From: Mycobacteriales bacterium
GTDB taxonomy: Bacteria; Actinomycetota; Actinomycetes; Mycobacteriales; SCTD01
Assembly (NCBI GenBank): GCA_038230355.1
Contig: JBBRNK010000014.1
Location: 24,747-88,746 of the forward strand
DNA length: 64,000 nucleotides
Direction of reading: 5' to 3'
Made by a program: the position numbers and the translations under genes. Of the stretch, positions 2,211 to 51,914 are shown piece after piece. Positions within the stretch are counted from its first letter, which is position 1. Every line of letters begins with the position of its first letter. The notes beneath the pieces are model-generated. The model made no database searches and was not told the origin of the DNA. It saw only the letters and a program-made list of their open reading frames with translations.

Positions 2211-2470
2211 GACGAGGGCCGGTCAGCGACCTTGGCCGCCACGAGGTCCACGAAGGTCCCGAGGTGCCTGGTGCCCGCGATCTCGTCCTCGGGCAGGGAG
2301 ATCCCGAGAGCGTCCTCGACTGCCATGGCGAACTCGATGAGCGCGAGCGAGTCGACGCCGAGGTCGTCGACGAAGGACACGTCCTCGGCGAGCTCCTCGG
2401 GCGCCAGGTCGAGCAGGCTGACGGCCTGGTTGCGCACCACCTCGAGGACTGCCGCTCGCTCCACCCGCAC
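2207..2470 (-). CDS. acyl carrier protein (ACP-1)
   Basis: 87 aa, acidic, with phosphopantetheine attachment motif DDLGVDSLALIE. Confidence 0.9.
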   Translation of the reverse strand: MRVERAAVLEVVRNQAVSLLDLAPEELAEDVSFVDDLGVDSLALIEFAMAVEDALGISLPEDEIAGTRHLGTFVDLVAAKVADRPSS

Positions 2471-6297: not shown

Positions 6298-7179
6298 ATG
6301 CGCACCGCTCTCGTGTTCCCCGGGCAGGGATCGCAGCGTCCCGGCATGGGCGCCGCGTGGACCTCGACCCCCGGCTGGTCCCTCGTCGCCGAGGCCTCCG
6401 CAGCCCTGGACCGCGACCTGTCGTGGTTGCTGCTGGAGGCCGACGCCGAGCAGCTGCGCCAGACGAGGGAGGCTCAGGTCGCGACGTTCCTCGTGTCCCT
6501 GCTCGCCCTACGGGCCCTGCCGGAACTCGTCGTGAACAACGTCACGGTAGTCGCCGGTCACTCGCTCGGGGAGTACACGGCACTGGTCGCCGCCGGGGTC
6601 CTGTCCGAGGCTGACGGCCTCCGGCTGGTGGCCGAGCGCGGGGAGGCCATGCAGGTCGCCGCCGAGGCTGCGCCGGGGACGATGGCAGCTGTGTTGGGCC
6701 TGCCCGACGAGCAAGTGGCCGCGGCCTGTCCCGACGGAGTGTGGGTCGCCAACCTCAACGCCCCGAGCCATGTCGTGGTCTCGGGCGGGGTCCCGGCAAT
6801 GGCCGGGGCAGCAGACCTCCTGAAGGCCGCCGGAGCCCGCCGCGTCCTGCCGCTGCCGGTCGGTGGCGCCTTCCACACCCCGCTCATGGCGCCGGCCCGG
6901 GAGCGCCTCGACCGCGCCCTCTCGCAAGCGGTGTACGCCGCGCCGACGCTGCCCGTCCTCGCCAACGTGACCGCTTCCCCGTACCCGACAGGGGTTGCCG
7001 CCCTGCTGTCCGAGCAGCTGACCGCGCCCGTCCGCTGGCGACAGACGCTGGAGGCCCTCGACGTCGACCGGGTCGTCGAGGTCGGGCCCGGAGGTGTGCT
7101 CACCGGCCTGGTGAAGCGAACCCGGTCCGACCTGGCCGCTGGCAGCGTCACGACCCCAGCCGACCTGGCGGCGCTGTGA
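6298..7179 (+). CDS. fabD: malonyl-CoA:ACP transacylase
   Basis: MRTALVFPGQGSQRPGMG N-terminus and active-site GHSLGEYTAL. The ORF is also open from GTG 6280; ATG 6298 is preferred because a GGGGCAGGA purine tract lies 7 nt upstream. Confidence 0.9.
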   Translation: MRTALVFPGQGSQRPGMGAAWTSTPGWSLVAEASAALDRDLSWLLLEADAEQLRQTREAQVATFLVSLLALRALPELVVNNVTVVAGHSLGEYTALVAAGVLSEADGLRLVAERGEAMQVAAEAAPGTMAAVLGLPDEQVAAACPDGVWVANLNAPSHVVVSGGVPAMAGAADLLKAAGARRVLPLPVGGAFHTPLMAPARERLDRALSQAVYAAPTLPVLANVTASPYPTGVAALLSEQLTAPVRWRQTLEALDVDRVVEVGPGGVLTGLVKRTRSDLAAGSVTTPADLAAL

Positions 7180-7904
7180 CCGCCGATCCGAGCACCGCGA
7201 CCCCGAGCCGCTCGGTGCTCGTCACCGGTGGCAACCGCGGCATCGGGCTGGCGACGGCCCGGATGCTGGCAGCCCAGGGGCACCGGGTCGCCGTGACCTA
7301 CCGGTCCACGGTCCCTGAGGGCCTGTTCGGGGTGCGTTGCGACGTGACCTCGACGGCCGAGGTCGACGCGGCCTTCACCGAGGTCGAGGCTGCCCACGGG
7401 CCGGTCGAGGTGCTGGTCTCGAACGCCGGCCTGACCGACGACGGCCTGCTGCTGCGGATGTCCGAGGCGTCCTTCACTCGCGTGCTCGACGCCAACCTCA
7501 CGGGCGCCTACCGGGTCGCGAAGCGGGCCTCCCGGGGAATGCTCCGGGCCCGGTGGGGGCGCCTGGTGTTCGTGTCCTCCGTCGTGGGGCTGTCCGGCGC
7601 GGCGGGGCAGGCCAACTACGCCGCGTCCAAGGCGGGGCTCGTCGGGCTGGCGAGGTCGTTGGCGCGCGAGCTGGGGGGCCGGGGCATCACCTCCAACGTC
7701 GTGGCGCCGGGCTATGTCGACACCGACATGACCGCGGCGCTCAGTGAGGCACGCAGGACCGAGCTGCTGACGACGATCCCCGCCGGGCGGACCGCCACTG
7801 CGGACGAGATCGCCACCGTCATCGCCTTCCTGGCCGGCGACGGAGCGGCCTACGTCAACGGGGCCGTCCTACCCGTGGACGGTGGGCTCGGGATGGGGCA
7901 CTGA
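7176..7904 (+). CDS. fabG: 3-oxoacyl-ACP reductase (MabA/FabG1-like)
   Basis: GTG start in a GTGA overlap with fabD. SVLVTGGNRGIG, NYAASKAG and a PVDGGLGMGH C-terminus; closely resembles mycobacterial MabA end to end. Confidence 0.9.
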   Translation: MTADPSTATPSRSVLVTGGNRGIGLATARMLAAQGHRVAVTYRSTVPEGLFGVRCDVTSTAEVDAAFTEVEAAHGPVEVLVSNAGLTDDGLLLRMSEASFTRVLDANLTGAYRVAKRASRGMLRARWGRLVFVSSVVGLSGAAGQANYAASKAGLVGLARSLARELGGRGITSNVVAPGYVDTDMTAALSEARRTELLTTIPAGRTATADEIATVIAFLAGDGAAYVNGAVLPVDGGLGMGH

Positions 7905-7957
7905 CCCGCGCAGCCGCGTCCCGACCTCGATCGGCTGAGGCCGGATACGCTGCCGAC

Positions 7958-8203
7958 ATGGAACGCGCAGAGGTGTTGCAGGTCATGCGTGACAAGGCCG
8001 TCGAGATGCTCGAGGTCGAGGCTGACGCGGTGCAGGAGGACAAGTCGTTCGTCGATGACCTCGAGGTCGACTCGCTCTCGCTGGTGGAGTACACGATGGA
8101 GCTCGAGGACTCCCTCGGCGTCGAGCTGCCCGAGGATGAGTTGACCGACCTCACGACGATCGGCGCCTTCCTGGACCTGATCATGACCAAGGTCCCCGCG
8201 TAG
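7958..8203 (+). CDS. acyl carrier protein (ACP-2)
   Basis: 81 aa, acidic, with DDLEVDSLSLVE attachment motif. Confidence 0.9.
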   Translation: MERAEVLQVMRDKAVEMLEVEADAVQEDKSFVDDLEVDSLSLVEYTMELEDSLGVELPEDELTDLTTIGAFLDLIMTKVPA

Positions 8204-8959
8204 GTGCTGCTGGCCGGAAAGCGGTTGCTGGTGACGGGGGTCCTCACCGAGGCGAGCATCGCCTTCTCGGTCGCCCGGCTGGCTGCTGAGCAGGGAGCCG
8301 ACGTCGTGCTGTCCGGCTTCGGCCGCGCGCTGTCGCTGACCCGGCGGGTCGCCCGGCGACTGCCCGGCGACCTGCCGGTGGTCGAGCTCGACGTGACGAG
8401 CGAGGCCGACCTCGCCGCGGTGCCCGAGCGGGTCGGAGGACGGCTCGACGGGGTCCTGCACGCCATCGGGTTCGCGCCGGCGTCAGCCCTCGGGTCTGGC
8501 CTGCTCGACACCCCCTGGGCGGACGTCGGCACAGCTCTGCACGTGTCGACCTGGTCCTACGCAGCGTTGGCGCGCGCCTGCGCGCCCCTGATGCCTCCTG
8601 GCTCGTCCTACGTCGGGCTCGACTTCGACGCGCGCGTGGCATGGCCGGGCTACGACTGGATGGGCGTCGCGAAGGCCGGCCTGGAGAGCGCCAACCGTTA
8701 CCTGGCAAGGGATCTGGGCGTACGCGGGATCCGCAGCAACCTCATCGCCGCGGGGCCGGTCAAGACGATGGCCGCCAAGAGCGTCCCCGGCTTCGAGCAG
8801 TTCGAGGCCGTCTGGGACGAGCGGGCGCCCCTCGGTTGGGACGTCACCGACGCCGAGCCCGTCGCCCAGGCCTGCGTGGCCCTGCTCTCGGACTGGTTCC
8901 CCGCGACGACCGGAACCATCGTGCACGTCGACGGCGGCTTCTCGGCGGTCGGCGCATGA
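8204..8959 (+). CDS. fabI: NADH-dependent enoyl-ACP reductase (FabI/InhA type), catalytically intact
   Basis: 251 aa. GTG start abuts the ACP stop. Y-x6-K motif is intact in PGYDWMGVAKAGLES; AAGPVKT is present. Confidence 0.9.
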   Translation: MLLAGKRLLVTGVLTEASIAFSVARLAAEQGADVVLSGFGRALSLTRRVARRLPGDLPVVELDVTSEADLAAVPERVGGRLDGVLHAIGFAPASALGSGLLDTPWADVGTALHVSTWSYAALARACAPLMPPGSSYVGLDFDARVAWPGYDWMGVAKAGLESANRYLARDLGVRGIRSNLIAAGPVKTMAAKSVPGFEQFEAVWDERAPLGWDVTDAEPVAQACVALLSDWFPATTGTIVHVDGGFSAVGA

Positions 8960-9729
8960 GCACCTGGCGGCTCACCGACGCCGACTGGAACTCCTGGCCC
9001 GACGGCCTTTCCGGACCCGACCACGTCCGGCAGACCGCCGCCCTCGGTCTCGAGGGCGTCGAGCTGGGGGTTTACGACGCCTCCGTCGAGCTCGCCCCGG
9101 AGCGGCTGGCCGCGCTGCCGTCCGACGTGCCCGTCACCGACGTGCTGCTGTCGCTGACGGTCGAGCGCTGGCCAGGCGGCGCCCTGTCCGGTGACGTGGA
9201 CCGGCTCGTGACGCAGGTGCGCGCCTGCGCGGACGTCTGCCGCTCGATGGGGCTTCCCGTCCTCGGGCTCTGGCCCGGTGCCGACCCCATCGGCGCCGAC
9301 GTCGTCGAGGGAGCTCGGCGGGTCGTCGAGGCGGCCGGCGATGTCCGCGTCGCCCTCGAGTACAAGCCCGGCACAGCCGTCGAGACCGCATCGGACGCCC
9401 TCGCTCTGTGCGGGCGGGTCCCGGGCCTCGGGGTCCTGCTCGACACCGGCCACGCCTACGCAGCCGGGGAGGACCCGGCGCAGGTCGTCGACGCCCTCGC
9501 AGACCTGCTCCTGCACTGCCACCTTGGCGATGCCGACCTCGGCGGCAGCGACGACGACCTGCCCTGCGGCAGGGTGCACGACCTGAGCTCGTTCGTGGCC
9601 GCTCTCGACGCCTCGGGCTTTCGGGGCACCGCCTCCTTCGACCTGTACGGCGCGGTCGTGGCCGGGCTTGCCACCGGCCGGGAGGCCGTGCGGGAGAGCC
9701 GCGACCACGTTCTGTCGAGGCGGGTGTGA
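8956..9729 (+). CDS. sugar phosphate isomerase/epimerase (xylose-isomerase-like TIM barrel)
   Basis: ATG in an ATGA overlap with the fabI stop. Motifs VALEYKPG, LLDTGHA and HCHLGD are typical of AP_endonuc_2-type TIM barrels. Confidence 0.75.
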   Translation: MSTWRLTDADWNSWPDGLSGPDHVRQTAALGLEGVELGVYDASVELAPERLAALPSDVPVTDVLLSLTVERWPGGALSGDVDRLVTQVRACADVCRSMGLPVLGLWPGADPIGADVVEGARRVVEAAGDVRVALEYKPGTAVETASDALALCGRVPGLGVLLDTGHAYAAGEDPAQVVDALADLLLHCHLGDADLGGSDDDLPCGRVHDLSSFVAALDASGFRGTASFDLYGAVVAGLATGREAVRESRDHVLSRRV

Positions 9730-10679
9730 GGGCGGTCGTCGCCCACGGTCCCGGCGACTTCCGCCTCGAGAACCTTGACGACCCGGACGCCCCCGCCGGC
9801 GGCCTGCTGGTCCGGGTCGAGGCCACCGGGGTCTGTGCGGCCGACCGAATGCTCTGGACCGGCCGCCATCCCTGGGGCGAGCTTTCGTGGCCGTTCACGC
9901 CGGGCCACGAGGTGGTCGGGACGGTCGTCGCCGGCCGCCTGCCGGTCGGGACGAGGGTGACCGCGGAGGTCAAGCTGCCCTGCGGCTCCTGTGCGTTCTG
10001 CGCCCGTGACGAGCAGCACCTGTGCCCGCACGGCCTGCATCTGGGCAGCGGGATCCCCGGCGGCTTCGCCGAGCTGCTCGCCCTGCCGCCGGCAGCGAGG
10101 GTGCACGAGGTACCCCTGACGCTCACCCTCGAGCAAGCCGTGCTCGCCGAACCGATGGCCTGCGCGCTGCACGCGGTCCGACGGGCCGGCGTGCGCGACG
10201 GCGACCGGGTCCTCGTCGCAGGCCTCGGAGGTCTCGGGGCGCTAGCCGTCACCGCGGCCCGCCACGCGGGAGCTGCGCGCGTAACGGCACTGGTGCGGAC
10301 CGACGAGAAGGCTCGGCTGGCAACCGATCTCGGCTACGACGACGTTGTGCGCCGGCCCACCGAGTCGTCGTACGACGTGGGGGTGGACGTGAGCGGGTCG
10401 GTCGACGCGGTCGCGGCCGTGCTGGCCGCCGTGAGGCCTGGGGGTCGGGTCGGCGCGTACGGCGTCTACGACCGGCCACTCGTGCTGGACCTGAACCAGC
10501 TGGGCGAGTTCGGCGAACGCTCCCTGGCCGGCGGGCACCTCGCTCCCAGCTGCTTCCCGGAAGCCATCGCCCTGCTCGCGCAGGTGCACGGCGTCGTCAC
10601 CGGCAGCCACCCCCTGGAGCGCGTCGCCGACGCGTTCGCCCCACGACCGCAGCGCATGAAGGAGATCGTGGTCCCGTGA
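9726..10679 (+). CDS. zinc-dependent medium-chain alcohol/polyol dehydrogenase
   Basis: GTGA overlap start. Catalytic-Zn context GVCAAD...GHEVVG, structural-Zn cluster CGSCAFCARDEQHLC, and nucleotide fold VAGLGGLG. Confidence 0.85.
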   Translation: MRAVVAHGPGDFRLENLDDPDAPAGGLLVRVEATGVCAADRMLWTGRHPWGELSWPFTPGHEVVGTVVAGRLPVGTRVTAEVKLPCGSCAFCARDEQHLCPHGLHLGSGIPGGFAELLALPPAARVHEVPLTLTLEQAVLAEPMACALHAVRRAGVRDGDRVLVAGLGGLGALAVTAARHAGAARVTALVRTDEKARLATDLGYDDVVRRPTESSYDVGVDVSGSVDAVAAVLAAVRPGGRVGAYGVYDRPLVLDLNQLGEFGERSLAGGHLAPSCFPEAIALLAQVHGVVTGSHPLERVADAFAPRPQRMKEIVVP

Positions 10680-11323
10680 CGCCCCGGCAAGCCGACCTCG
10701 TGGAGCAGCTCATCACCGTCGGCCGCAAGGCCGTGGCCGCAGGCATGGTCATCGGGTCCGGCGGCAACCTGTCGGCCCGCGAGCCCGGCAGTGACGAGTG
10801 CGTGGTGACCTGCTCCGGCTCGTGGCTCGACGAGCTGCGCCCAGAAGACTTCTCGGTGGTGGCGATCGATGACGGCACCGTCCGTGGCGGTCACCCGAAG
10901 CCAAGCAGCGAGGCGATGCTTCACCTGGCGACCTACCGGGTCCGGGCGGACGTGAACGCGGTGATCCACCTGCATCCGCAGACGTCGGTCCTGCTCGACG
11001 CCCTCGGCAAGGACATCCGGCTGCTGACGATCGACCACGCCTACTACGTCCGCGAGGTCCGCTCCACCCCCTTCATCCAGAGCGGTACCCCGGAGCTGGC
11101 GGAGGCCGGGGCCGCAGCCGTCGCCGACGGCTGCAACTGCGTGATCCTCGGCCACCACGGCTGCTCGGTCCTGGGCGAGACCGTCGAGCTCGCCCACAAG
11201 CGGGCCGCCAACCTCGAGGAGGCAGCGCGGGCCACCCTGACGATGCTGCAGCTCGGGGACACGACGACCGCCTGCCCCCCGGAGTACCTTGCCCGCGTGC
11301 GTGCCGGTGAGGGCTCGGTCTAG
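10676..11323 (+). CDS. class II (metal-dependent) aldolase/adducin-family protein
   Basis: GTGA overlap start. GSGGNLSAR, SSEAMLH, VIHLHP and GHHGCSVLG match the fuculose/ribulose-phosphate aldolase-epimerase family. Confidence 0.85.
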   Translation: MTPRQADLVEQLITVGRKAVAAGMVIGSGGNLSAREPGSDECVVTCSGSWLDELRPEDFSVVAIDDGTVRGGHPKPSSEAMLHLATYRVRADVNAVIHLHPQTSVLLDALGKDIRLLTIDHAYYVREVRSTPFIQSGTPELAEAGAAAVADGCNCVILGHHGCSVLGETVELAHKRAANLEEAARATLTMLQLGDTTTACPPEYLARVRAGEGSV

Positions 11324-12709
11324 ATGCTGCTGGTCGCCGGCCTGGACCTCGGCGGGTCGTCGGTGAAGGCCTGGGTGCAACAGGTCGGTGGCCCAATGGT
11401 CGCCTCGATCACGGTTCCCACGGTGACGGATCGACAGGGGTTCCGGGCCGAGTTCGACGCCACCTCCTGGGAAGCGGCGTGCCACGAGGCACTGGGGGCC
11501 GTCACCAAGGACCTGGCGGGTGAGTGGCTGGGAGTGACCGTGAGCTCGCTGCGACAGGGCTTCGTTCTCCTCGACGCCGGCGGCGGGGTGCTCGGTCCCG
11601 GGGTCCTCAACAGCGACCGGCGAGGGGCTCCCTACGCGCACGTGCTCGACGGGCAGCACTCCCTCACCGGTCACTGGCCGGCACCGGAGCTCACGTTGCC
11701 CAAGCTGCTCGCCGTCAAGGCCGAGGAGCCGGACCGGTGGGCACTGACGGCCCGCGTCCTGTTCCTGCACGACTGGCTCGTGAACGCCATGACCGGCGAG
11801 CAGGTCACCGAGGTGTCGTACGCCTGCGCCGGCGGCATGGCCGACGTCGCCCGCAGAGGCTGGGCCCGCGACCTGCTCGCGGCCTGCGGCATCCCAGACG
11901 GCCTGCTGGCTCCGATCGTGGAGGCCGGGACCGTCGTCGGGTCGCTGCAACCGGGGTGGGCACTTCCGACCGGGCTGCCGGTCGTGGCGGGCTGCGGTGA
12001 CACCCAGCTGGCCGCGATGGGCGCCGGCGGCCTCAGCGACGCCGTCGTGACCGTCGTCGCCGGCTCGAGCACCCCGGTCCTCGCCGCGACCCGCACCCCC
12101 GTCACCGATCCGCTGGGTCGGCCCTGGATCTCGACGCACGCGGCACCGGACCTGTGGGCCGTCGAGGGCAACGCCGGCTACCCCGGGTCCTTCTCCGGCT
12201 GGTGGGCGGGCATCGTCGACGCACCGTTGGCCGACGACCCCGGCGGCGTCGTCGCCGTCACCGCGGTCGAGCTGTGGTCCCAGCGCACCTGGGAGACCAA
12301 ACCTCCCTGGTCCCTGCTCCACCTGAGCCCGACGACCACCCCGGGCCAGGTACGCCGGGCACTGCTGGAGGCGCACGCGTTCTCGGTCGCGGCAGGCGTC
12401 GACGACCTCGCCCGGTTGCTCGGACCGGCCCGCCACGTCGTGGTCACCGGCGGTGCCGCTACTGACGGGGAGCTCCCAGCGCTGCTCGCGACCGTCCTCG
12501 GCCGCGAGGTCCGCTGGGACCGCGAGCCCAGCGCCGCCGCAGCCGGCACGGCCCTCGTCGCCCGCGCCCTCGATGCCGGCCCTGCCGACGAACACACCCT
12601 CCGACTCCCCCGAACCCCCCGCTCCCCGGGCGATCTCGCTGCCCTGGGCGACAGGCGCACGCAGTGGACCCAGGCCGTCGAGGCCCTGCGCGCGGTGGCC
12701 CCCTCGTGA
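11324..12709 (+). CDS. FGGY-family carbohydrate kinase
   Basis: ATG directly after the TAG of the aldolase gene. N-terminal GLDLGGSSVKAW and GCGDTQLAAMGAG motifs. Confidence 0.85.
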   Translation: MLLVAGLDLGGSSVKAWVQQVGGPMVASITVPTVTDRQGFRAEFDATSWEAACHEALGAVTKDLAGEWLGVTVSSLRQGFVLLDAGGGVLGPGVLNSDRRGAPYAHVLDGQHSLTGHWPAPELTLPKLLAVKAEEPDRWALTARVLFLHDWLVNAMTGEQVTEVSYACAGGMADVARRGWARDLLAACGIPDGLLAPIVEAGTVVGSLQPGWALPTGLPVVAGCGDTQLAAMGAGGLSDAVVTVVAGSSTPVLAATRTPVTDPLGRPWISTHAAPDLWAVEGNAGYPGSFSGWWAGIVDAPLADDPGGVVAVTAVELWSQRTWETKPPWSLLHLSPTTTPGQVRRALLEAHAFSVAAGVDDLARLLGPARHVVVTGGAATDGELPALLATVLGREVRWDREPSAAAAGTALVARALDAGPADEHTLRLPRTPRSPGDLAALGDRRTQWTQAVEALRAVAPS

Positions 12710-13647
12710 AGGCCCTCGTCACGGCGGAGTTCACCGCCGAGGGAATCCGGCGTCTGGAGGCGCTGGGCTACACGGTCGACAGGGCCGGCTGGGGCATGAC
12801 CCGGCGGGCCCTCGACCGGGCACAGCTGGTTGCTGCCGCCGAGGGCGCCGAGCTCCTGGTGACCGAGATCGAAGTCGTCGACGCCGACGTCCTCGCGGCC
12901 CTGCCCGACCTCCTGCTCGTCGCGACGGCCCGGGGTGGACCGGTCAACGTCGACCTGGCGGCGTGCACTGCTCGCGGGATCCCCGTGCTGTTCACGCCAG
13001 GGCGCAACGCCGACTCGGTTGCCGACTTCGTGGTCGGCACCGTCCTGTCCCTGGTCCGCGGCATAGCAGCCTCCGAGCGGCACCTGCGCGACACCGGATG
13101 GAACGTCGACGACGAGCTGCCCTACCTGCACTTTCGGGGACCCGAGCTGTCCCAGCTGACGGTCGGGGTCGTGGGCAACGGCGCGATCGGGGTCCGCGTC
13201 GGGCAGCGGTTCCGCGACGGTTTCGGGACGACCGTCGTCGTCCACGACCCGGTGCAGGGCATCGGGCCGTCGCTCGGCGAGCTCGCCGACCAGGTCGACC
13301 TGCTGACCCTGCATTGCCCACGCTCGCCCGCGACCCGGGGCCTGGTCGACGCCGCCCTGCTGGACCGCCTCGGGCCGGGCTGGATCGTCAACACTGCCGG
13401 CGGCGGCATCGTCGACGAGCAGGCCCTGTGCGACGCCCTCGATGCGGGCACCTTGCGCGGCGCAGCCCTCGACGTCTTCAGCTCCGAGCCACTCCCCAGG
13501 GACAACCGCCTGCTCCGCACACCTGGGCTGCTGCTCACCCCTCACCTGGCGGGGGCGGCCGACGACGTCGTGCGCCATCACACTGACCTGATCGTCGCCG
13601 ACGTCGAGCGCTGGCACCGTGGCGAGCCCCTGCTGCACCGCGCCTGA
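12706..13647 (+). CDS. D-isomer-specific 2-hydroxyacid dehydrogenase family protein
   Basis: GTGA overlap start. GVVGNGAIGVRVG NAD fold, and catalytic His in LLLTPHLAGAA. Confidence 0.85.
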   Translation: MKALVTAEFTAEGIRRLEALGYTVDRAGWGMTRRALDRAQLVAAAEGAELLVTEIEVVDADVLAALPDLLLVATARGGPVNVDLAACTARGIPVLFTPGRNADSVADFVVGTVLSLVRGIAASERHLRDTGWNVDDELPYLHFRGPELSQLTVGVVGNGAIGVRVGQRFRDGFGTTVVVHDPVQGIGPSLGELADQVDLLTLHCPRSPATRGLVDAALLDRLGPGWIVNTAGGGIVDEQALCDALDAGTLRGAALDVFSSEPLPRDNRLLRTPGLLLTPHLAGAADDVVRHHTDLIVADVERWHRGEPLLHRA

Positions 13648-13731
13648 CCCGCTGAGCGGCACAAACGGCGGTGCATGCAACACTGGTCGTCACTCATTAC
13701 GGGCTATTCCGTACCGTCACCTAGGAGCCAC

Positions 13732-14952
13732 GTGCGCCGCCTGCTCGCCACCGCCACCCTCGCCACCCTCGCGCTGAGCGCGTGCGGCTCCGGCTCGACC
13801 AGCGCCACCCCCAAGGCCAGCGGTGCAAGCTTCGCCGACGTCCTGACCCAGGCCAAGGGCCAGACCGTCAACTGGTACATGTACGGGGGGGACGACACCA
13901 TCAACGGCTTCGTCAACGGCTACGTCGCCGACAAGCTCAAAGCCCTCGGGGTCACGCTGAACCAGGTCAAGATCACCGACACGGTCACCGCCGTCGACAA
14001 GGTGCTCGCGGAGAAGCAGGCAGGCACGAAGGACGGCTCGGTCGATGCGATCTGGATCAACGGCGAGAACTTCGCGACCGGCAAGCAGGCCGGTGCGTGG
14101 TACTGCGGCGGCGACAAGAAGCTGGCCAACGCGAAGTACGTCGACTTCACCAAGCCGGCCGTCGCCAACGACTTCGGGCTGCCCGTCGACGGCTGCGAGT
14201 CGGTGTGGCAGCAGGCCAACTCAGCCCTCGTCTACGACAGCTCCAAGCTCACCGCGGACGACGTCAAGAGCGTGAGCAGCCTGTTCGCCTGGGCGACGGC
14301 GCACCCGGGCCAGTTCACCTACCCGGCTCCCCCGGACTTCACCGGCTCGATGGCCGTCCGCACCTTCTTCTACGACACCAACGGCGGTCCGACCGGGTTC
14401 AAGGGAGCCTTCGACAAGGCCACCTACTCGCCGGCCGCCACCAAGCTGTGGGACCGGCTCAACGCCCTCAAGCCCAGCCTCTACAAGAAGGGCGCGACCT
14501 ACCCGGCCGGCCAGCCCGACGTCGAGAAGCTGTTCGCCAACGGCGAGGTCGCCGCGTTCCTCACTTACGGCCCCGGCGGGGTCGGCGACCAGGTCACCAA
14601 GGGCGTCTATCCCAAGACCACCCGCGAGGCCGTCCTCGACGTCGGCAACATCAGCAACTACAGCTTTCTGAGCATCCCCGCCAACAGCCCGCACAAGGCC
14701 GCCGCCCAGGTGCTCGAGAACGTCCTGCTCGACCCGCAGACTCAGCTGCAGTTCTACAAGCTCTCGGGCAGCTTCCCCGCCATCGACCTCGCCAAGCTCA
14801 CCACCGCTGAGCAGGCGCAGTTCGCCGCCGTGAGCACCAGCCCCTCCGTGCTGCCCCTGACCGAGTTGACCAAGAACGCCCAGCCGGAGCTCACGAGCGG
14901 TTACGTCACCGCGATCGAGAAGGACTGGAAGACCAACGTCCTCCAGAAGTAG
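13732..14952 (+). CDS. ABC transporter substrate-binding lipoprotein, YnjB-like
   Basis: GTG preceded by AGGAGC. Signal peptide with lipobox (LALSAC). The body resembles E. coli YnjB-type binding proteins (VLAEKQAG...GSVDAIWINGENFATGKQAG). The ORF is also open from 13675. Confidence 0.8.
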   Translation: MRRLLATATLATLALSACGSGSTSATPKASGASFADVLTQAKGQTVNWYMYGGDDTINGFVNGYVADKLKALGVTLNQVKITDTVTAVDKVLAEKQAGTKDGSVDAIWINGENFATGKQAGAWYCGGDKKLANAKYVDFTKPAVANDFGLPVDGCESVWQQANSALVYDSSKLTADDVKSVSSLFAWATAHPGQFTYPAPPDFTGSMAVRTFFYDTNGGPTGFKGAFDKATYSPAATKLWDRLNALKPSLYKKGATYPAGQPDVEKLFANGEVAAFLTYGPGGVGDQVTKGVYPKTTREAVLDVGNISNYSFLSIPANSPHKAAAQVLENVLLDPQTQLQFYKLSGSFPAIDLAKLTTAEQAQFAAVSTSPSVLPLTELTKNAQPELTSGYVTAIEKDWKTNVLQK

Positions 14953-15013
14953 CCGCGTTCCCCGGGGACTGCGCATCGCCCTGCTGCTGAGTCCTGCGCT
15001 CGGCCTCGTCGGC

Positions 15014-15820
15014 GTGCTGTTCCTGGGGGGACTGGGACTCGGGGTGGCGCAGTCCTTCGGCTACCTGCCCTTCCTACCCGGCTGGCACTGGTCGCTCGAC
15101 GCCTACTCGGGTCTGCTCGACGACAAGGCCGTCCGGCAGTCGTTCGTCCTCACCTTCCGGGTGGCGTTCCTGTCGACCGGCCTGGCCGTCGTGTTGGGGG
15201 TCGGCAGCGCCCTGCTGATCCGGTCCACCCGAAGGGGCAAGCGGCTGCTGTCCGCGCTGTTCCAGAGCACCCTGCCCGTACCCCACGTCGTCGGGGCCCT
15301 CGCCATGCTCCTGCTGTTGTCCCAGGGCGGCACGCTGTCGCGGCTGACCAACGCGGTGGGCCTGACGCACGGCTCGCAGAGCTTCCCGGAACTGGCCGGG
15401 GACCGGTTCGGCTGGGCGATCCTCGCCGAGTACGTCTGGAAGGAGGCCCCCTTCATCGGGGTCGTCGTCCTGTCCGCCCTCAGCTCGGGCGTGGCCGACC
15501 TCGAAGACGCCGCCCGCACCCTCGGCGCGGGTCCCGCAGCCCGGCTGCGCCATGTCGTGCTGCCCCTCATCACGCCGGGCGTGCTCGCGACCTCGATCCT
15601 GGTCTTCGCCTACAGCTTCGGCTCCTACGAGGTGCCCTATCTGCTCGGTCGGCCCTACCCTGCCACCCTGCCCGTGGTGGCCTACCAGTACTACACCGAC
15701 GTCGACCTCAACGCCCGCCCGGTGGCGATGGCGATCTGCGTCGTCATCGCGGTCCTCATCGCCTCGCTGGTGGCGCTCTACATGCTGCTCGCCGAGCGCT
15801 TCGTCCGGAGGACAGCGTGA
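15014..15820 (+). CDS. ABC transporter permease (YnjC N-half-like)
   Basis: Multi-TM protein with an EAA-loop-like ARTLGAGPAARLRHVVLP. Start is uncertain: the frame is open from 14870 and encodes TM-like residues, but has no ATG/GTG/TTG before 15014. Confidence 0.8.
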   Translation: MLFLGGLGLGVAQSFGYLPFLPGWHWSLDAYSGLLDDKAVRQSFVLTFRVAFLSTGLAVVLGVGSALLIRSTRRGKRLLSALFQSTLPVPHVVGALAMLLLLSQGGTLSRLTNAVGLTHGSQSFPELAGDRFGWAILAEYVWKEAPFIGVVVLSALSSGVADLEDAARTLGAGPAARLRHVVLPLITPGVLATSILVFAYSFGSYEVPYLLGRPYPATLPVVAYQYYTDVDLNARPVAMAICVVIAVLIASLVALYMLLAERFVRRTA

Positions 15821-16611
15821 TCCGGACGCTTCCGCGCTGGCTGCTCGCGATCGGGCTGCTGCTGCCCTTCGTCCCCCTGCTGGTCTGGGCCGGCTCCGGC
15901 CAGTGGCGGTATCCGGCCGTCGTACCGCAGCGCGGGAGCGGGCGCGGACTGCGACTGCTCCTCGACCCCGCCTCCGACATCCCCCAGGGCCTGCTCACGT
16001 CCTTGCTACTCGGCGTCACCGTCAGCGTGATCGCCTGCGCGATAGGGCTGTGCGCCGGACGGGCGCTAGGGCTGTACGCGTTCCGGGGCAAGAGGGCGGT
16101 GCGGTTCCTGCTGCTCGCCCCGGCCATCGTTCCTGGTCTCGCCGTCACGCTCGGGATCCAGGTCTTCTTCCTGCGCTACCGACTGGCGGGGACGCTGCCC
16201 GGGGTCGTGCTCGTGCAGCTGCTGCCCACGATCCCCTACGTCACGCTCGTCCTGGGGAGCGCCTTTGCCAACTTCGAGACGGGCTACGAGGAACAGGCCC
16301 GCACTCTCGGCGCCGGCCCGCTGCGCACCTTCTGGCACGTCACGCTGCCGGTGCTGCGACCCTCGCTGGTCGTGGCGGCTTTCTTCGCGTTCCTCATCTC
16401 GTGGAGTGAGTACATCCTGACCCTGCTCATCGGCGGAGGCACCGTGAAGACCCTGCCGCTGCTGCTGTTCGCCTACATCGGCAGCTCCGACCAGAACGTC
16501 GCGGCGGCACTCGCCCTGCTGGTCGTGCTGCCACCGTTCCTGCTGGTGCTGCTCACGTCGCGCTTCCTCACCGGGAGCCAGACCGGCGCCGTCGGATTCG
16601 GTCGCCTGTGA
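15817..16611 (+). CDS. ABC transporter permease (YnjC C-half-like)
   Basis: GTGA overlap start. Multi-TM, with EAA loop ARTLGAGPLRTFWHVTLP. Confidence 0.85.
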   Translation: MIRTLPRWLLAIGLLLPFVPLLVWAGSGQWRYPAVVPQRGSGRGLRLLLDPASDIPQGLLTSLLLGVTVSVIACAIGLCAGRALGLYAFRGKRAVRFLLLAPAIVPGLAVTLGIQVFFLRYRLAGTLPGVVLVQLLPTIPYVTLVLGSAFANFETGYEEQARTLGAGPLRTFWHVTLPVLRPSLVVAAFFAFLISWSEYILTLLIGGGTVKTLPLLLFAYIGSSDQNVAAALALLVVLPPFLLVLLTSRFLTGSQTGAVGFGRL

Positions 16612-17624
16612 CCACCGGTACGACGGTCGAGCTCCGTGGCCTGACCAAGTCCTACGACGGCACGCAGGTCGTGGCCGGCCTGGACCTGGTGATCCGGCCG
16701 GGGTCGCTGACCGCACTGCTGGGCCCGTCGGGATGCGGGAAGACGACGACCCTGAAGGTCGTGGCCGGGCTGCTCGACGCCGACGCCGGCGACGTCCTTT
16801 TCGACGGCCGAAGCGTGTTGTCCCTGCGCGCGGAGCAGCGGCCGGTGGCGATGGTGTTCCAGAAGCCGCTGCTGTTCCCGCACCTCTCGCTCGGCGACAA
16901 CGTCGGCTTCGGGCTGCGGATGCGCAAGGTGCCCAAGAAGGAGCGGGTCGAACGGGTGGCGCGGGCCCTCGAGCTGGTCCGGCTGCAGGACCTGGCCTCC
17001 CGGCGGGTCGGCGAGGTCTCCGGTGGCCAGGAGCAGCGGGTGGCCCTGGCCCGCGCGCTCGTGACCGAGCCGTCCGTGCTGCTGCTGGACGAGCCCTTCT
17101 CGGCCCTGGACGCCAGTCTGCGTGGAGAGGTCCGTGACCTGGTCCGCGGGCTCCAGCAGGAGCTCGGGGTCACGACACTGTTCGTCACGCACGACCAGGA
17201 GGAGGCTGTCGCCATGTCGGACGACATCGCCTTGCTGTTCGAGGGACGCGTCGAGCAGAGCGGACCGCCGAGGGACTTCTACGCGGCGCCGGCCAGCATG
17301 CGGGTGGCCCGCTTCTTCGGGGGCCGCAACGAGCTGCCGGCAACCGTGCGGACGGGCATGGTGCACTCCGCCCTCGGGCAGTGGGCGACGTCCCGGACGG
17401 AGGGGGCTGCAGTGCTCACGGTCCGGCCCGAGGCCGTCGTACTGGCAGCGGAAGGCCTGCCCGCGAAGGTGCTCGAGGCCCGCTTCCTCGGTACCCACGT
17501 GGCCGTCACGGTCGAGCTCGCCGACGGGTCACGCCTGCGGCTGCACGCCCCACCCAGCACCGCATTGCCGTCCCACGTGCACCTGTCGGTCGACCCGGCC
17601 GCGACGACCCTGCTGGAGCCGTGA
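16608..17624 (+). CDS. ABC transporter ATP-binding protein (PotA/FbpC/YnjD-like, with C-terminal TOBE-like domain)
   Basis: Walker A GPSGCGKTT, signature SGGQEQRVALAR, Walker B LLLDEPFSALD. GTGA overlap start. Confidence 0.9.
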   Translation: MTTGTTVELRGLTKSYDGTQVVAGLDLVIRPGSLTALLGPSGCGKTTTLKVVAGLLDADAGDVLFDGRSVLSLRAEQRPVAMVFQKPLLFPHLSLGDNVGFGLRMRKVPKKERVERVARALELVRLQDLASRRVGEVSGGQEQRVALARALVTEPSVLLLDEPFSALDASLRGEVRDLVRGLQQELGVTTLFVTHDQEEAVAMSDDIALLFEGRVEQSGPPRDFYAAPASMRVARFFGGRNELPATVRTGMVHSALGQWATSRTEGAAVLTVRPEAVVLAAEGLPAKVLEARFLGTHVAVTVELADGSRLRLHAPPSTALPSHVHLSVDPAATTLLEP

Positions 17625-18577
17625 TGGACCCGCTCGACCTCCCGCCCACCGACCGCGTTCTCGACGTCGTCATCGACACCGACCCGCTCAACGAGGTTGA
17701 TGACCAGTTCGCCATCGCCTGGGCCCTGCTGCGCCCTGACCGGCTCAACGTCCGGGCCCTGCTCGCCGCGCCGTGGGTCAGCGACGAGCAGGTCTACGCG
17801 AGCACCGACCCAACGGTCGACGCACCACGGCACGAGCAGGCCACCCGACCGGCAGTGGCCCCAGCCGAGGGCGTCGCGCGTGCCACCGCTGAGCTCCACC
17901 GCCTCGTCGAGCTGACCGGCAGCGGGGCAGCCGTCCACCAGGGTGCTGACCGGTTCATGACCGGGCCGGGACAGCCGGTCACCAGCGCCGCGACCGAGGC
18001 CCTCATCGCCCTCGCCCACGAGCCGCGCACCGGGCCCCTGTACGTCGTGGGGATCGCCTGCGCGACGAACCTGGCCAGCGCCCTGCTCCTGGATCCGAGC
18101 ATCGCCGACCGGATCTGCGTCGTGTGGACCAGCGCGCACCCGACGTTCTGGCCGCGGCCGACCGCGTCGTACAACCTGTCATTGGACCTGGTGGCGTCGC
18201 GGGTGCTCTTCGACTGCGGCGTGCCGCTCGTCTACCTGCCCGGCTACTACGTCGGGGAGGAGCTGCGGACGACGCGGGCGGAGCTGGCTGACCACGTCCG
18301 CGGTCGAGGACCAGTCGGCGACTACCTGTGGCAGACCTGGGAGAGCCACTGGATGACGCGGACGCGGCGGCCCGGGTTCAGCAAGGTGATCTGGGACCTG
18401 CTCAACATCGCCTACCTCGTCGAACCCGCGTGGCTGGCGACCGACCTGGTCGACTCGCCTGTGCTCGACGACGAGCTGCGCTGGCAGCACCCTCCCGGTC
18501 GGCACCAGATCCGGGAGGCGTACGACGTCGACCGCGACGCCGTCTTCGGCGACCTGTTCCGCGTCCTCGCCGGCTAG
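17624..18577 (+). CDS. nucleoside hydrolase-like protein
   Basis: ATG overlaps the ATPase stop (TGATG). The N-terminal Asp cluster VVIDTDPLNEVDDQFAI resembles the IU-nucleoside hydrolase DxDxxxDD motif but has a 5-residue spacer. Confidence 0.7.
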   Translation: MDPLDLPPTDRVLDVVIDTDPLNEVDDQFAIAWALLRPDRLNVRALLAAPWVSDEQVYASTDPTVDAPRHEQATRPAVAPAEGVARATAELHRLVELTGSGAAVHQGADRFMTGPGQPVTSAATEALIALAHEPRTGPLYVVGIACATNLASALLLDPSIADRICVVWTSAHPTFWPRPTASYNLSLDLVASRVLFDCGVPLVYLPGYYVGEELRTTRAELADHVRGRGPVGDYLWQTWESHWMTRTRRPGFSKVIWDLLNIAYLVEPAWLATDLVDSPVLDDELRWQHPPGRHQIREAYDVDRDAVFGDLFRVLAG

Positions 18578-19281
18578 CGCACGAGGCTCAGGGCGACCTC
18601 GAAGGTCGCGTCGTTGGCGCGCTGCTGGGCAGCCACCTCGACCTTGCTGAACGACTCCGTCCACGACCGCCCAGGCAGCTCGTCCCAGACGAAGAGCAAC
18701 GACACCGCCTGTGCGCCATGGCAACTGGCCGCCGAGAACACCGCGCTGGTCTCCATGTCGACGCCCAGGTGTCCCGCCTCGTTCCAACGGGTGAGCAGCT
18801 CCGGGGGCTGCGCGAGCAGCGCGTCCGTCGAGACGGTCGGGCCGACGTGGACGCGCACGGGACCGAAGGACACGGCCGCCCGTGCGACCAGGTCGGGCGT
18901 CGGCAGCGACGTACCCGAGGAGCCGTAGTACTGGGAGGCGCCCTCACCGATCGTGGCGCGCGAGGAGACGACCACGTCGCCGGTGGGGATCCCGAACCCG
19001 CCGCACGAACCGATCTGCACCACCCGGGGGGTGCCGCACGTCACGAGCACCTGCACCGGCTCGACCGCGCGGGCCGCGCCGTAGGCCGGGCAGTAGGCGA
19101 CGGGGACCCCGTCGAGACGTCCCCACCACAGGTCGGGCATCCCGGTCTCCCGGACGTCCGTCAGATAGGGCAGCCGCTTGTCGAGCGCTTTCGCGCGCCA
19201 CCAGGTGCCCTCGCAGACGAGCAGCTGCGGCACCTCATCCTCGCCGAGGCCGAGCAGGCTCAGCCATCCCGCGCGGTCCAC
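18574..19281 (-). CDS. nucleoside phosphorylase family 1 (PNP/UDP/MTAP-like) protein
   Basis: GSCGG and GVDMETSAV motifs. GTG 19281 is chosen as start. The ORF is open to 19467, but that extension is Cys/Pro/Arg-rich and unlike the family. Confidence 0.7.
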   Translation of the reverse strand: MDRAGWLSLLGLGEDEVPQLLVCEGTWWRAKALDKRLPYLTDVRETGMPDLWWGRLDGVPVAYCPAYGAARAVEPVQVLVTCGTPRVVQIGSCGGFGIPTGDVVVSSRATIGEGASQYYGSSGTSLPTPDLVARAAVSFGPVRVHVGPTVSTDALLAQPPELLTRWNEAGHLGVDMETSAVFSAASCHGAQAVSLLFVWDELPGRSWTESFSKVEVAAQQRANDATFEVALSLVR

Positions 19282-19471
19282 GCGACACAACCTACTGTTC
19301 GCCGGCGCGCGACAGGGCCATGCTGGCGGGCGTCCGCCCTGGTCGAAGGCTGCCCCAACTGGCCGACGGACACAGACCGAGGAAAGTCCGCCCGGCGCCA
19401 CCTCCGCCGACCACGGGCAGGACAGAACCTTGCAGCAGTCCCAGCCAGGCCAGCCTGGGCCCAGCAAAGGC

Positions 19472-30099: not shown

Positions 30100-30107
30100 A
30101 CGAACCA

Positions 30108-30121
30108 CAATACACGTATTG
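30108..30121. promoter_or_regulatory. perfect 6-2-6 palindrome CAATAC-AC-GTATTG in the dabBA/wHTH divergent intergenic region
   Basis: Read directly in an unusually AT-rich stretch. It overlaps a minus-strand TATTGT -10-like hexamer (30107..30112) that ends 7 nt before the dabBA ATG. Confidence 0.4.
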
Positions 30122-30178
30122 CAATTCAAGTGTCTGGGATCTGGCTCGATCGGTCATGATGAAGGGGTGAACAACAAC

Positions 30179-51865: not shown

Positions 51866-51914
51866 GCCGCCATGGTGCCGCACTGGCACCAAACCTGAGG
51901 ACGTCGCCACGCCC

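Follow-up and report, generated by a model that had tools for sequence, protein, structure and literature searches.

Does a four-base overlap between a gene for fatty acid synthesis and a gene for a sugar isomerase-type enzyme signify that their products work together? This question is raised by a stretch of 64,000 nt (hereafter, the window; G+C approximately 72%) from a Mycobacteriales bacterium (assembly GCA_038230355.1, contig JBBRNK010000014.1, positions 24,747 to 88,746 of the forward strand), in which a string of same-strand genes at 6298-18577 passes from genes of a type II fatty acid synthase (FAS-II) into sugar-type enzymes, an ATP-binding cassette (ABC) importer, and a nucleoside hydrolase (NH)-like protein. 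An earlier note on this DNA regarded the ATGA overlap between fabI and the following TIM-barrel gene (TIM) as unexpected, and proposed that the sugar-type enzymes supply a head group or starter for the lipid made by the neighboring genes or, alternatively, that the genes after fabI are a captured catabolic operon. In the present study, comparisons with related loci (numbered L001 onward) showed that the overlap is derived and is a by-product of the recent loss of another gene. We consider, with a probability of approximately 0.5, that the string is a lineage-specific composite operon of three separable cassettes (6298-8959, 8956-13647, and 13732-18577), the second and third of which may process nucleoside sugars.

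Gene Organization of the String

Fourteen genes, not the 16 of the earlier count, were found on the plus strand, and profile searches with Pfam and NCBIfam agreed with the families to which they had been assigned. They are listed below by cassette.

Cassette 1
6298..7179 (+), fabD', dedicated malonyl-CoA:acyl carrier protein (ACP) transacylase (Pfam Acyl_transf_1; TIGR00128 257.2, below the 260.9 cutoff; 35% identical to housekeeping FabD)
7176..7904 (+), fabG, 3-oxoacyl-ACP reductase of the housekeeping FabG1 type (NCBIfam FabG1, 371 bits; NF009466 232.9, above the 222 cutoff; 78% identical to fabG of the canonical operon L035)
7958..8203 (+), ACP1, dedicated acyl carrier protein (Pfam PP-binding; best NCBIfam ACP model 59.5, cutoffs 66-84; 30% identical to housekeeping AcpP)
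8204..8959 (+), fabI, enoyl-ACP reductase of the InhA/FabI type, an extra or relocated copy (NF005908 402.6, above the 299 cutoff; 81% identical to the canonical FabI of L035)

Cassette 2
8956..9729 (+), TIM, metal-dependent barrel of the sugar isomerase/epimerase fold (Pfam AP_endonuc_2, 76.7 bits; AF2 pLDDT 95; a small family)
9726..10679 (+), Zn-ADH, zinc-dependent alcohol/polyol dehydrogenase (Pfam ADH_N and ADH_zinc_N; nearest models threonine 3-dehydrogenase, scyllo-inosose 3-dehydrogenase, and idonate 5-dehydrogenase, below cutoff)
10676..11323 (+), class II (FucA/DrdA-type) ketose-1-phosphate aldolase (Pfam Aldolase_II, 139 bits)
11324..12709 (+), FGGY-family sugar kinase (Pfam FGGY_N and FGGY_C; nearest models XylB, 161 bits against a cutoff of 380, and LsrK; best PDB matches xylulokinase and autoinducer-2 kinase)
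12706..13647 (+), 2-HADH, D-isomer-specific 2-hydroxyacid dehydrogenase (Pfam 2-Hacid_dh_C and 2-Hacid_dh; nearest models phosphoglycerate dehydrogenase and 2-HADH, below cutoff)

Cassette 3
13732..14952 (+), substrate-binding protein (SBP), a YnjB-type lipoprotein of the ABC importer (NF008633 408.9, above the 203 cutoff; Pfam SBP_bac_8; lipobox LSAC at the N-terminus)
14969..15820 (+), ABC permease 1, with its start at CTG 14969 or GTG 15014 (Pfam BPD_transp_1)
15817..16611 (+), ABC permease 2 (Pfam BPD_transp_1)
16608..17624 (+), ABC ATPase with TOBE_2, PotA/FbpC-like (Pfam ABC_tran and TOBE_2; nearest models PotA and ferric ATPase, below cutoff)
17624..18577 (+), NH-like, divergent protein of the nucleoside hydrolase fold (Pfam IU_nuc_hydro, PF01156, 50.9, above the 34.2 cutoff; weak PDB matches to plant NRH1 and RihB/YeiK)

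Spacers are absent at ten of the 13 junctions, and translation of the proposed genes reproduced each of these ten exactly as they had been described: six GTGA four-base overlaps (7176-7179, 9726-9729, 10676-10679, 12706-12709, 15817-15820, and 16608-16611), the single ATGA four-base overlap between fabI and TIM (8956-8959), a TGATG overlap between the ATPase and NH-like genes (17622-17626), and abutting stop and start codons between ACP1 and fabI (TAG-GTG, 8201-8206) and between the aldolase and FGGY genes (TAG-ATG, 11321-11326). Since four-base overlaps are common within actinobacterial operons, this dense packing argues for an operon, but not for anything unusual. The three gaps also have the lengths previously given to them, namely, 53 nt (7905-7957), 84 nt (13648-13731, upstream of the SBP), and 61 nt (14953-15013, before the first permease), but the last of these is probably part of the permease 1 coding sequence because the in-frame peptide RVPRGLRIALLLSPALGLVG upstream of GTG 15014 is conserved both in L001 and, with third-position changes, in L029. 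The upstream frame of permease 1 (14953-15013) has no ATG, GTG, or TTG start, which leaves CTG 14969 as the only candidate. The GTG start of the SBP at 13732 is preceded by AGGAG; no comparable sequence precedes the in-frame ATG at 13675.

No Shine-Dalgarno-like sequence was found before the TIM ATG at 8956, and the translation of TIM thus probably depends on ribosomes terminating on fabI. It is plausible that the two genes are co-transcribed and translationally coupled across 8956. A consensus scan, which is weak evidence in a genome of 72% G+C, detected no intrinsic terminator-like site in 6298-16300 and three in 16352-16791 against 3.1 expected by chance, and the scan of the string for promoters and terminators was uninformative. 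Genes on the opposite strand flank the string on both sides, KAS' at 5074-6246 (-) and the PNP-like gene at 18574-c.19290 (-). A foreign origin of the ABC module, considered on account of its lower G+C, was rejected: its GC3 is 0.95 and the dip is due to amino-acid composition.

Origin of the fabI/TIM Overlap

A scan centered on TIM, with one genome per species, yielded 22 loci, all of which were from uncultured Actinomycetota. They comprise a close group (TIM 70-94% identical), from metagenome-assembled genomes (MAGs) labelled Frankiales or Mycobacteriales, and a distant group with TIM identities of 43-58%, most of the members of which are labelled Acidimicrobiales. The direct junction between fabI and TIM was only present in L001-L003, the TIM proteins of which are 93-94% identical to that of the window. 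In other close loci, TIM is preceded by a gene for a protein of 354-366 aa with the acyl-CoA dehydrogenase (ACAD) fold, designated here as ACAD-X, which overlaps the start of TIM, and relatives with 81% TIM identity show the order fabI, a 25-nt gap, ACAD-X, and TIM.

One of these relatives, L026 (TIM 81% and fabI 87% identical), may be aligned with the window across the junction. The window reads GGCGCATGA immediately followed by GCACCTGG, whereas L026 reads GGCGCATGA, then CGGCGG and ACAD-X (1074 nt), and then CCGGGTGA followed by GCGCCTGG. With longer flanks, L026 reads GTCGGCGCATGA, CGGCGG and the 1074 nt of ACAD-X, CAGTCCGGGTGA, and GCGCCTGGCGGCTC, whereas the window and L002 both read GTCGGCGCATGA joined to GCACCTGGCGGCTC. 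The segment that is missing in the window, between two TGA triplets, is exactly ACAD-X with its 25-nt leader, and, as a consequence of this loss, the stop codon of fabI now supplies the A of a new TIM ATG. The position of ACAD-X directly before TIM is common to the two actinobacterial groups and is thus ancestral. Taken together, these alignments show the ATGA overlap at 8956-8959 to be a derived feature that arose as a by-product of the recent loss of ACAD-X.

By the reasoning of the earlier note, its inference would have failed if the junction were unique to this strain. The distribution of the junction is only slightly wider, with the exact junction occurring in one near-species-level group (L001-L003), and the wider neighborhood is conserved. 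Of the two explanations originally offered, that of a catabolic operon downstream of fabI is the better fit, but the event that brought the two together was a deletion of ACAD-X. This deletion would have put cassettes 2 and 3 under the transcription of, and in translational coupling with, cassette 1. Cassette 3 came to stand behind cassette 2 in the sub-clade of the window only.

Further losses have occurred at this position in L029 (KAS 87% identical), which has no ACAD-X, TIM, or Zn-ADH and in which the aldolase gene starts 55 nt after fabI. Another gene with the ACAD fold, ACAD-Y (3990-5036), is common to the window and L029, in both of which it accompanies a ligase, an ACP, and FabI2 beside KAS'. 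ACAD-Y was considered as a displaced ortholog of ACAD-X and rejected because the two are only 36-41% identical and ACAD-Y forms its own family with the L029 copy. The best matches of ACAD-X, all weak, are SfnB-type sulfur-acquisition oxidoreductases and ordinary ACADs, and it also matches the Rv1679 family weakly.

Separability of the Cassettes in Related Loci

The three cassettes were shown to be separable by their distribution among related loci. Distant loci have TIM, the aldolase, and FGGY, to which Zn-ADH, 2-HADH, and ACAD-X are added in most cases. Neither a FAS gene nor an ACP was found in them even at relaxed thresholds (no ACP at E<=0.05). The aldolase and FGGY genes form an invariant pair in every locus long enough to show both, and Zn-ADH and 2-HADH are absent in L021 and L022. 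The window, L001, L002, and L029 are the only loci in which 2-HADH is followed by the ABC importer and NH-like module. Judging from this distribution, cassette 2 is an accessory sugar module of uncultured Actinomycetota that moves independently across actinobacterial classes.

Seven independent contexts centered on KAS' gave the reciprocal view of the FAS-like genes.

L028, no sugar genes; ACAD-X kept
L029, sugar genes adjacent
L030, no sugar genes; ACAD-X kept
L031, sugar genes adjacent, between FAS-type genes, in a tight operon of ACP, ACAD-X, aldolase, FGGY, 2-HADH, a 654-aa KAS III-like protein, and a 1851-aa acyl-CoA carboxylase
L032, sugar genes adjacent; a MaoC dehydratase at the position of fabI in the window
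L033, no sugar genes
L034, sugar genes adjacent; an opposite-strand DUF1697 gene between fabI and ACAD-X (as in L005)

The DUF1697 gene on the opposite strand between fabI and ACAD-X makes cassettes 1 and 2 separate transcription units in L005 and L034, and co-transcription is thus not conserved. A gene of this kind recurs between FAS-like genes and ACAD-X in L005, L028, L030, and L034 (L034:6592-7137). The 1851-aa protein of L031 (L031:1-5152, minus strand) is a single-chain biotin carboxylase/carboxyltransferase of the long-chain acyl-CoA carboxylase type. The block also adjoins HisN (288, above the 275 cutoff), MsrA, EamA, and other conserved genes; the inositol-phosphatase neighbor seen in relatives, a candidate member of the pathway, was rejected as such since it is this HisN.

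Two other neighbors recur beside the sugar cassette. A PNP_UDP_1 gene adjoins it in 12 distinct loci of both groups, and a fusion of Metallophos_2 and radical S-adenosylmethionine (SAM) domains adjoins it in all eight distant loci with enough flank, examples of which are given below.

L012:7128-8804 (-), radical-SAM fusion
L016:8213-9889 (-), radical-SAM fusion
L018:2999-4672 (+), radical-SAM fusion
L021:4593-6518 (-), radical-SAM fusion

In L018, the fusion, PNP, TIM, Zn-ADH, and aldolase genes follow one another on one strand with gaps of approximately 15 nt. The NCBIfam model nearest to the fusion is the Rv1681 family (263 bits, below the 380 cutoff), and the HpnH model scored 38 bits. A PhnD-type ABC system and a FAD oxidoreductase are also often present in distant loci. 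Radical-SAM genes are absent from the window (64 kb) and from all Mycobacteriales-type loci. Literature searches found no report on this cassette or on the function of Rv1679-Rv1681-like genes, and nothing relevant on clusters of FGGY and class II aldolase with ACP and ketosynthase (KS) genes, on radical-SAM/metallophosphoesterase genes with aldolase and phosphorylase genes, or on Art22.

A Second FAS-II-Like System

The string diverges from an operon on the minus strand, the genes of which are, in order, as follows.

5074..6246 (-), KAS', dedicated beta-ketoacyl-ACP synthase (KAS), transcribed away from the string (N- and C-domain matches to ketoacyl-synt in Pfam; TIGR03150 fabF 430.5, below the 493.75 cutoff; 44% identical to a related housekeeping FabF)
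3990..5036 (-), ACAD-Y, ACAD-fold paralog (weak Pfam Acyl-CoA_dh_N/M; 67% identical to the L029 copy)
2479..3993 (-), AMP-forming acyl ligase, a candidate for loading the starter (Pfam AMP-binding and AMP-binding_C; no NCBIfam equivalog reached; 66% identical to the L029 ortholog), overlapping ACAD-Y by 4 nt
2207..2470 (-), ACPy, stand-alone acyl carrier protein (Pfam PP-binding, 48 bits; under all NCBIfam ACP cutoffs of 66-92), overlapping FabI2 by 4 nt
1425..2210 (-), FabI2, FabI-like paralog of the short-chain dehydrogenase/reductase type (Pfam adh_short_C2, 167 bits; NF005908 264, below the 299 cutoff; 47% identical to housekeeping FabI; also in L029)
833-1324 (-), beta-carbonic anhydrase

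KAS' was found in every related Mycobacteriales-type locus with enough flank. When the FAS-type genes were tested as housekeeping genes, fabD', KAS', and both ACPs of the window scored below the equivalog cutoffs, as did their L023 orthologs, and fabI passed the FabI equivalog NF005908 (InhA exception model 324.7, below the 430 cutoff). No fabH (ACP_syn_III gene) was found in 1-24 kb of the window, and no dehydratase is present in the window.

A canonical FAS-II operon, L035 (3135-8771), lies on the same contig as locus L024, with the order regulator-fabD-fabH-acpP-fabF-fabG-hydrolase-fabI. Its comparison with the window gave identities of 35% for fabD', 44% for KAS', and 30-31% for ACP1 and ACPy, and of 78% for fabG and 81% for fabI; the latter two values match the 61-85% divergence of other orthologs between these two genomes. 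A metagenome scan with the canonical FabF returned ten clade operons with enough flank, all ten of which have fabI downstream. The presence of fabG in only three of them suggests that this reductase is often encoded solely in the second cluster. A tree of FabI revealed no deep split between the copies at this locus and the canonical copies.

The fabI copy at this locus has been shown by its decay to be dispensable in relatives. In L004 it is an internally deleted remnant, in which approximately 150 nt of the 5' end is fused to approximately 110 nt of the 3' end (8630-8930); in L025 (8150-8905) it carries a 1-nt frameshift relative to the nearly identical L026, which is either real decay or an assembly error; and it is absent in L024 and L028-L033. 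The description of fabI as a core lipid gene in the earlier note holds insofar as the gene belongs to the housekeeping InhA/FabI orthogroup, but the copy at this locus need not be the core one, given its decay or absence in relatives. The proposal that this copy is the only core gene of its kind is weakened by the L004 pseudogene and by fabI in the ten canonical operons. On sequence grounds, the locus is a second, dedicated FAS-II-like system, the transacylase, carriers, and condensing enzyme of which are old paralogs of the housekeeping set, and its reductases fabG and fabI are of the housekeeping type and represent relocated or extra copies.

Enzymes of the Sugar Cassette

TIM belongs to a small family: a comparison with 1.84 billion representatives at 50% identity gave 14 relatives at E<=1e-30 and 43 at E<=1e-10. 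A Foldseek search with its predicted structure returned only generic sugar isomerases and epimerases, including Art22, 3KTC, ketose 3-epimerases, UlaE, IolE, and xylose isomerase (TM 0.7-0.8; 15-23% identity), which does not fix the substrate, and no NCBIfam model matched except for IolE, weakly. The residues E135, D163, H189, and D229 are invariant in the family alignment and, from their motif positions, are candidate metal ligands.

The aldolase has as its best solved relative 6BTD (81.9 bits), which is the 5-deoxyribulose-1-phosphate aldolase DrdA (PMC6079011). Its PSSE, HxH, and HHG motifs (Glu/His/His/His) align with those of DrdA and FucA, which points to an aldolase that releases dihydroxyacetone phosphate (DHAP) rather than an epimerase; curated models remained below cutoff (FucA_Meth 103 against 250). 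FGGY kinases, the family to which the next gene belongs, include ketose 1-kinases, such as fuculokinase and rhamnulokinase.

Importer Cassette and Downstream Flank

The canonical N-terminal calcium/ribose motif of nucleoside hydrolases is DXDXXXDD. The corresponding motif of the NH-like protein, DTDPLNEVDD, has two extra residues, and the RihC and RihB models scored 26-29 bits against 382-459. No solved relative of the SBP was found by a PDB search. The string is followed by minus-strand genes, the first of which converges on it.

18574..19290 (-), PNP-like, phosphorylase/nucleosidase-like protein of the PNP/UDP family, convergent on the string (Pfam PNP_UDP_1, PF01048, 75 bits; start estimated from orthologs of 235-238 aa)
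19974..20735 (-), SAM-dependent methyltransferase (Pfam Methyltransf_11/25)
20746..22161 (-), aldehyde dehydrogenase (ALDH), candidate oxidizer of the aldehyde from the aldolase (Pfam Aldedh, 469 bits)
22171..23712 (-), second AMP-forming acyl ligase (Pfam AMP-binding)

The best PDB matches of the PNP-like protein are uridine phosphorylase and, second, the methylthioadenosine phosphorylase of Sulfolobus (39 bits). Its longest open reading frame (ORF; 18574-19467, minus strand) includes a Cys/Pro/Trp-rich N-terminal extension of approximately 60 aa that is absent from the orthologs, and the real start is probably near 19290. Copies of the ALDH with 63-65% identity adjoin PNP in the distant loci L021 and L022, and orthologs of the second ligase flank the locus in L004, L025, L026, L028, and L030 and follow FGGY in L021.

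Other Features of the Window

Several other genes were observed outside the region described above. A giant ORF at 55078-63972 (-), with a length of at least 2964 aa, specifies a surface protein of repetitive structure with 17 SdrD_B, 13 Big_9, cadherin-like, SpaA, and He_PIG domains and tandem repeats of 270-288 nt, and a sortase gene is present at 24204-24887 (-). Domains of the inorganic-carbon transporter DabA and of Proton_antipo_M (DabB-like) occur in one long ORF at 25969-30129 (-), where ORF calling may have joined two genes. A gene for wax-ester synthase/diacylglycerol acyltransferase (DGAT) lies at 35792-38317 (-), the longest ORF of which has an N-terminal extension of approximately 380 aa without Pfam matches. 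Other lipid-related genes nearby are PlsY (30742-31890, in an ORF that also matches the Sua5/YciO domain) and a glycerophosphodiester phosphodiesterase (51077-51937).

Discussion

Regarding the possible function of cassettes 2 and 3 of the composite operon, the favored substrate, as judged from gene neighborhoods, is the sugar moiety of a nucleoside or 5'-deoxynucleoside, because a PNP neighbor is persistent, an NH-fold gene and an importer are present in the sub-clade, and a radical-SAM neighbor is found in the distant group. The importer of cassette 3 would take up the substrate, and the NH-like enzyme would remove the base. An aldose or polyol may then be converted to a ketose by the TIM isomerase or Zn-ADH and phosphorylated by FGGY, implying a ketose-1-phosphate, which the FucA/DrdA-type aldolase would split into DHAP and a short aldehyde; the latter may be further reduced or oxidized by Zn-ADH, the nearby ALDH, and 2-HADH. 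We infer this order of reactions, the release of DHAP, and the nucleoside origin of the substrate.

Among the known systems closest to this scheme in their parts is the DHAP shunt for the salvage of 5-deoxyribose (MtnP or MtnN and MtnK, MtnA, and Ald2; DrdK-DrdI-DrdA of Bacillus thuringiensis; PMC6079011), which also has a PNP_UDP_1 enzyme near an isomerase, a kinase, and a FucA-like aldolase; some of its known clusters have sugar transporters, and the aldehyde is handled by an alcohol or aldehyde dehydrogenase, as may be the case here. It differs in that the kinase of cassette 2 is FGGY, with no MtnK/DrdK type being found, that the isomerase is an AP_endonuc_2 TIM barrel and not an MtnA/DrdI (IF-2B) protein, and that Zn-ADH, 2-HADH, and ACAD-X are extra. 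The use of FGGY and a TIM-barrel isomerase in place of MtnK and MtnA suggests that the free sugar is isomerized before it is phosphorylated, as in fucose and rhamnose catabolism. By analogy, cassette 2 is a candidate non-orthologous analog of the DHAP shunt or of nucleoside-sugar catabolism.

The catabolism of L-fucose, L-rhamnose, and D-arabinose follows the same logic, with FGGY and Aldolase_II enzymes, the Glu and three His residues of FucA, and dehydrogenases for aldehydes and hydroxy acids, but cassette 2 has no FucI or RhaA, its kinase scored 56 against 471 bits for fuculokinase and 37 against 528 bits for rhamnulokinase, and it is linked to genes for nucleoside cleavage. The L-arabinose and L-xylulose routes (AraB-AraD and LyxK-SgbU-SgbE) were not matched (AraD models 44-53 bits against 257-389), and neither was the UlaE/SgbU 3-epimerase, since TIM has no UlaE-type NCBIfam match and UlaE is one of many structural neighbors with 18-19% identity. 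The Otn tetronate pathway was also not matched, as the kinase is FGGY and not DUF1537, OtnC scored 89 against 250, and TIM has no OtnI-type match. Regarding the importer, the SBP passes the model for YnjB of the Escherichia coli YnjBCD transporter, which also has two permeases and a TOBE ATPase; in the window, the transporter is followed by a gene of the nucleoside hydrolase fold.

Several findings weigh against the composite operon as formulated above. FAS-type genes lie upstream of, and on the same strand as, the sugar genes in all ten close loci with visible flank, in at least four different architectures (fabI-TIM, fabI-ACAD-X-TIM, ACP-MaoC-ACAD-X-TIM, and fabD-ACAD-X-TIM), and the L031 operon, which continues into KAS III-like and carboxylase genes, hints at a functional tie between FAS and sugar genes. 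No enzyme of cassette 2 reaches a curated equivalog cutoff, and the substrates are thus not fixed; the nearest relatives of FGGY, xylulokinase and LsrK, phosphorylate C5 and not C1; and Zn-ADH is of the polyol/secondary-alcohol type, not the acetaldehyde-reductase type. TIM and Zn-ADH have been lost in L029 and L031, which keep the aldolase, FGGY, and 2-HADH, and a first step by an aldose isomerase is thus not essential. A plain sugar pathway does not account for ACAD-X, the translation of which is coupled to that of TIM in most loci. The location of the locus within a conserved core region means that its synteny is partly inherited, which weakens the case both for and against a functional link. 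A biochemical link between cassettes 1 and 2, hinted at by L031 and the recurrent adjacency, is possible, but not required by the data.

Such a link would be realized in a hybrid pathway in which a short aldehyde, acid, or C3 unit from the sugar cassette is activated by the ligase and loaded onto a stand-alone ACP, KAS' elongates it with malonyl-ACP1 supplied through fabD', and fabG and fabI reduce the product to a specialized lipid with a sugar-derived or omega-functionalized end. In addition to the constant upstream position of the FAS-type genes, the variety of their arrangements, and the tight L031 operon, this pathway is favored by the ligase, ACP, and ACAD-Y that the window and L029 carry beside KAS', by ACAD-X orthologs that accompany either cassette, and by the ALDH and second ligase as neighbors; the salinosporamide chloroethylmalonyl-CoA and fluoroacetate routes reportedly convert 5'-modified adenosine to an acyl building block via sugar-type enzymes. 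We nevertheless consider it unlikely because cassette 2 occurs without any FAS gene or ACP in distant loci, the FAS-like cluster occurs without sugar genes in three of the seven KAS-centered contexts, L005 and L034 have an opposite-strand gene between the cassettes, TIM, Zn-ADH, ACAD-X, fabG, and fabI have each been lost in some lineage, the window has no dehydratase, and adjacency within a conserved core region may be inherited rather than selected. Type II polyketide synthase- and FAS-like starter systems, such as that of cispentacin (AmcB/AmcF/AmcH), share the arrangement of ligase, ACP, KS, and ACAD-fold genes found here on the minus strand, but the AmcF and AmcB models were not reached (196.7 against 325 and 31 against 80), a single KS is present with no chain-length-factor partner, and fabG and fabI are enzymes for full reduction. 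A more specific version, in which the FAS-like system and the sugar cassette form one pathway, appears doubtful to us. The base would be stripped from a 5'-substituted or 5'-deoxy nucleoside, and the sugar would be isomerized, phosphorylated, and cleaved to DHAP and a two-carbon-extended aldehyde, which would be oxidized, adenylated, loaded onto the stand-alone ACP, and elongated by KAS', fabG, and fabI to an omega-functionalized lipid; in Acidimicrobiales-type relatives, the nucleoside may come from radical adenosylation by the metallophosphoesterase/radical-SAM fusion. If true, this would be a new use of the ribose of SAM or nucleosides as a building block for carbon chains.

That cassette 2 is an ordinary catabolic operon for a polyol or acid sugar (EltD/LerK, EryA/B/C, or Otn-like), with the PNP-like and NH-like genes being incidental, is rather unlikely in our estimation. 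Its dedicated ABC importer, the placement of Zn-ADH in the polyol/secondary-alcohol dehydrogenase group, the order FAD oxidoreductase-TIM-FGGY in L021 and L022, which resembles EryB/EryC/EryA, and a score of the 3-oxo-tetronate-4-phosphate decarboxylase model on the aldolase (89 bits) close to that of the FucA model (103 bits) are in keeping with it. The tetritol pathways of Mycobacterium smegmatis and Brucella (EltD/LerK/LerI/DerI and EryA/EryB/EryC) likewise have a polyol dehydrogenase, a sugar kinase, a TIM-barrel isomerase or racemase, an ABC importer, and, in some loci, a FAD oxidoreductase, but also RpiB- and TpiA-type isomerases, in place of which an aldolase is present here. A tetritol route comprising a dehydrogenase and an erythrulose 1-kinase has been described, as has the cleavage of erythrulose-1-phosphate by an aldolase (PMC10733421). 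The PNP-family gene is, however, the most persistent neighbor in both groups and, in L018, lies a short distance from TIM in the same orientation, and an NH-fold gene ends the string, while no Otn, Ula, Ery, or Ler model was reached. We regard radical adenosylation as the source of the substrate as very unlikely. According to this proposal, the fusion would add the 5'-deoxyadenosyl group of SAM to a substrate, PNP would remove adenine, and the isomerase, kinase, and aldolase would release DHAP, leaving the substrate extended by a two-carbon aldehyde, which would then be oxidized, activated, and, in the clade of the window, passed to the second FAS. There is a precedent in MqnB and HpnG, which remove adenine after MqnE and HpnH, and the constant presence of the fusion in distant loci, its tight run with PNP, TIM, Zn-ADH, and aldolase in L018, its likeness to the Rv1681 family together with the weak Rv1679-family match of ACAD-X, and the ALDH and acyl ligase in L021 and L022 are compatible with it; on the other hand, the window and Mycobacteriales-type loci have no radical-SAM gene, the salvage of by-product 5'-deoxyadenosine explains the adjacency more simply, the HpnH score is low, and the literature searches on Rv1679-Rv1681 yielded no function. 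The view that the FAS genes are simply the housekeeping FAS-II of the organism, with the sugar genes beside them by accident, is largely refuted. It draws on fabI passing its equivalog cutoff, on the FabG1-like fabG, and on the KAS/ACP/fabD/HisN block being present in the conserved core region of every related clade locus. The actinobacterial FAS-II (fabD-fabH-acpP-fabF; in mycobacteria, fabD-acpM-kasA-kasB and fabG1-inhA) comprises the same enzyme families, including the FabG1/InhA orthogroup, and mycobacteria also possess a second condensing system beside their primary synthase; however, the canonical operon is separate from the present locus, which instead has 30-44% identical paralogs that miss their cutoffs, no fabH, two to three stand-alone ACPs, an acyl ligase, ACAD-fold genes, and, in L004, a fabI pseudogene.

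The composite operon, as the reading we prefer, has implications beyond this strain. Where genes of unlike function overlap at their start and stop codons, the overlap can be the scar of a lost gene and need not indicate a common pathway, which calls for caution in operon-based predictions of function. The Rv1681-like fusion and weakly Rv1679-like ACAD genes offer a lead on families that include genes of M. tuberculosis. The uncharacterized sugar cassette, which is confined to uncultured Actinomycetota and has FGGY and the DrdA/FucA-like aldolase as its constant partners, is a candidate new sugar route, and MAGs of the Mycobacteriales/Frankiales type, from a widespread and abundant environmental clade, have a second FAS-II-like system in addition to the canonical operon.

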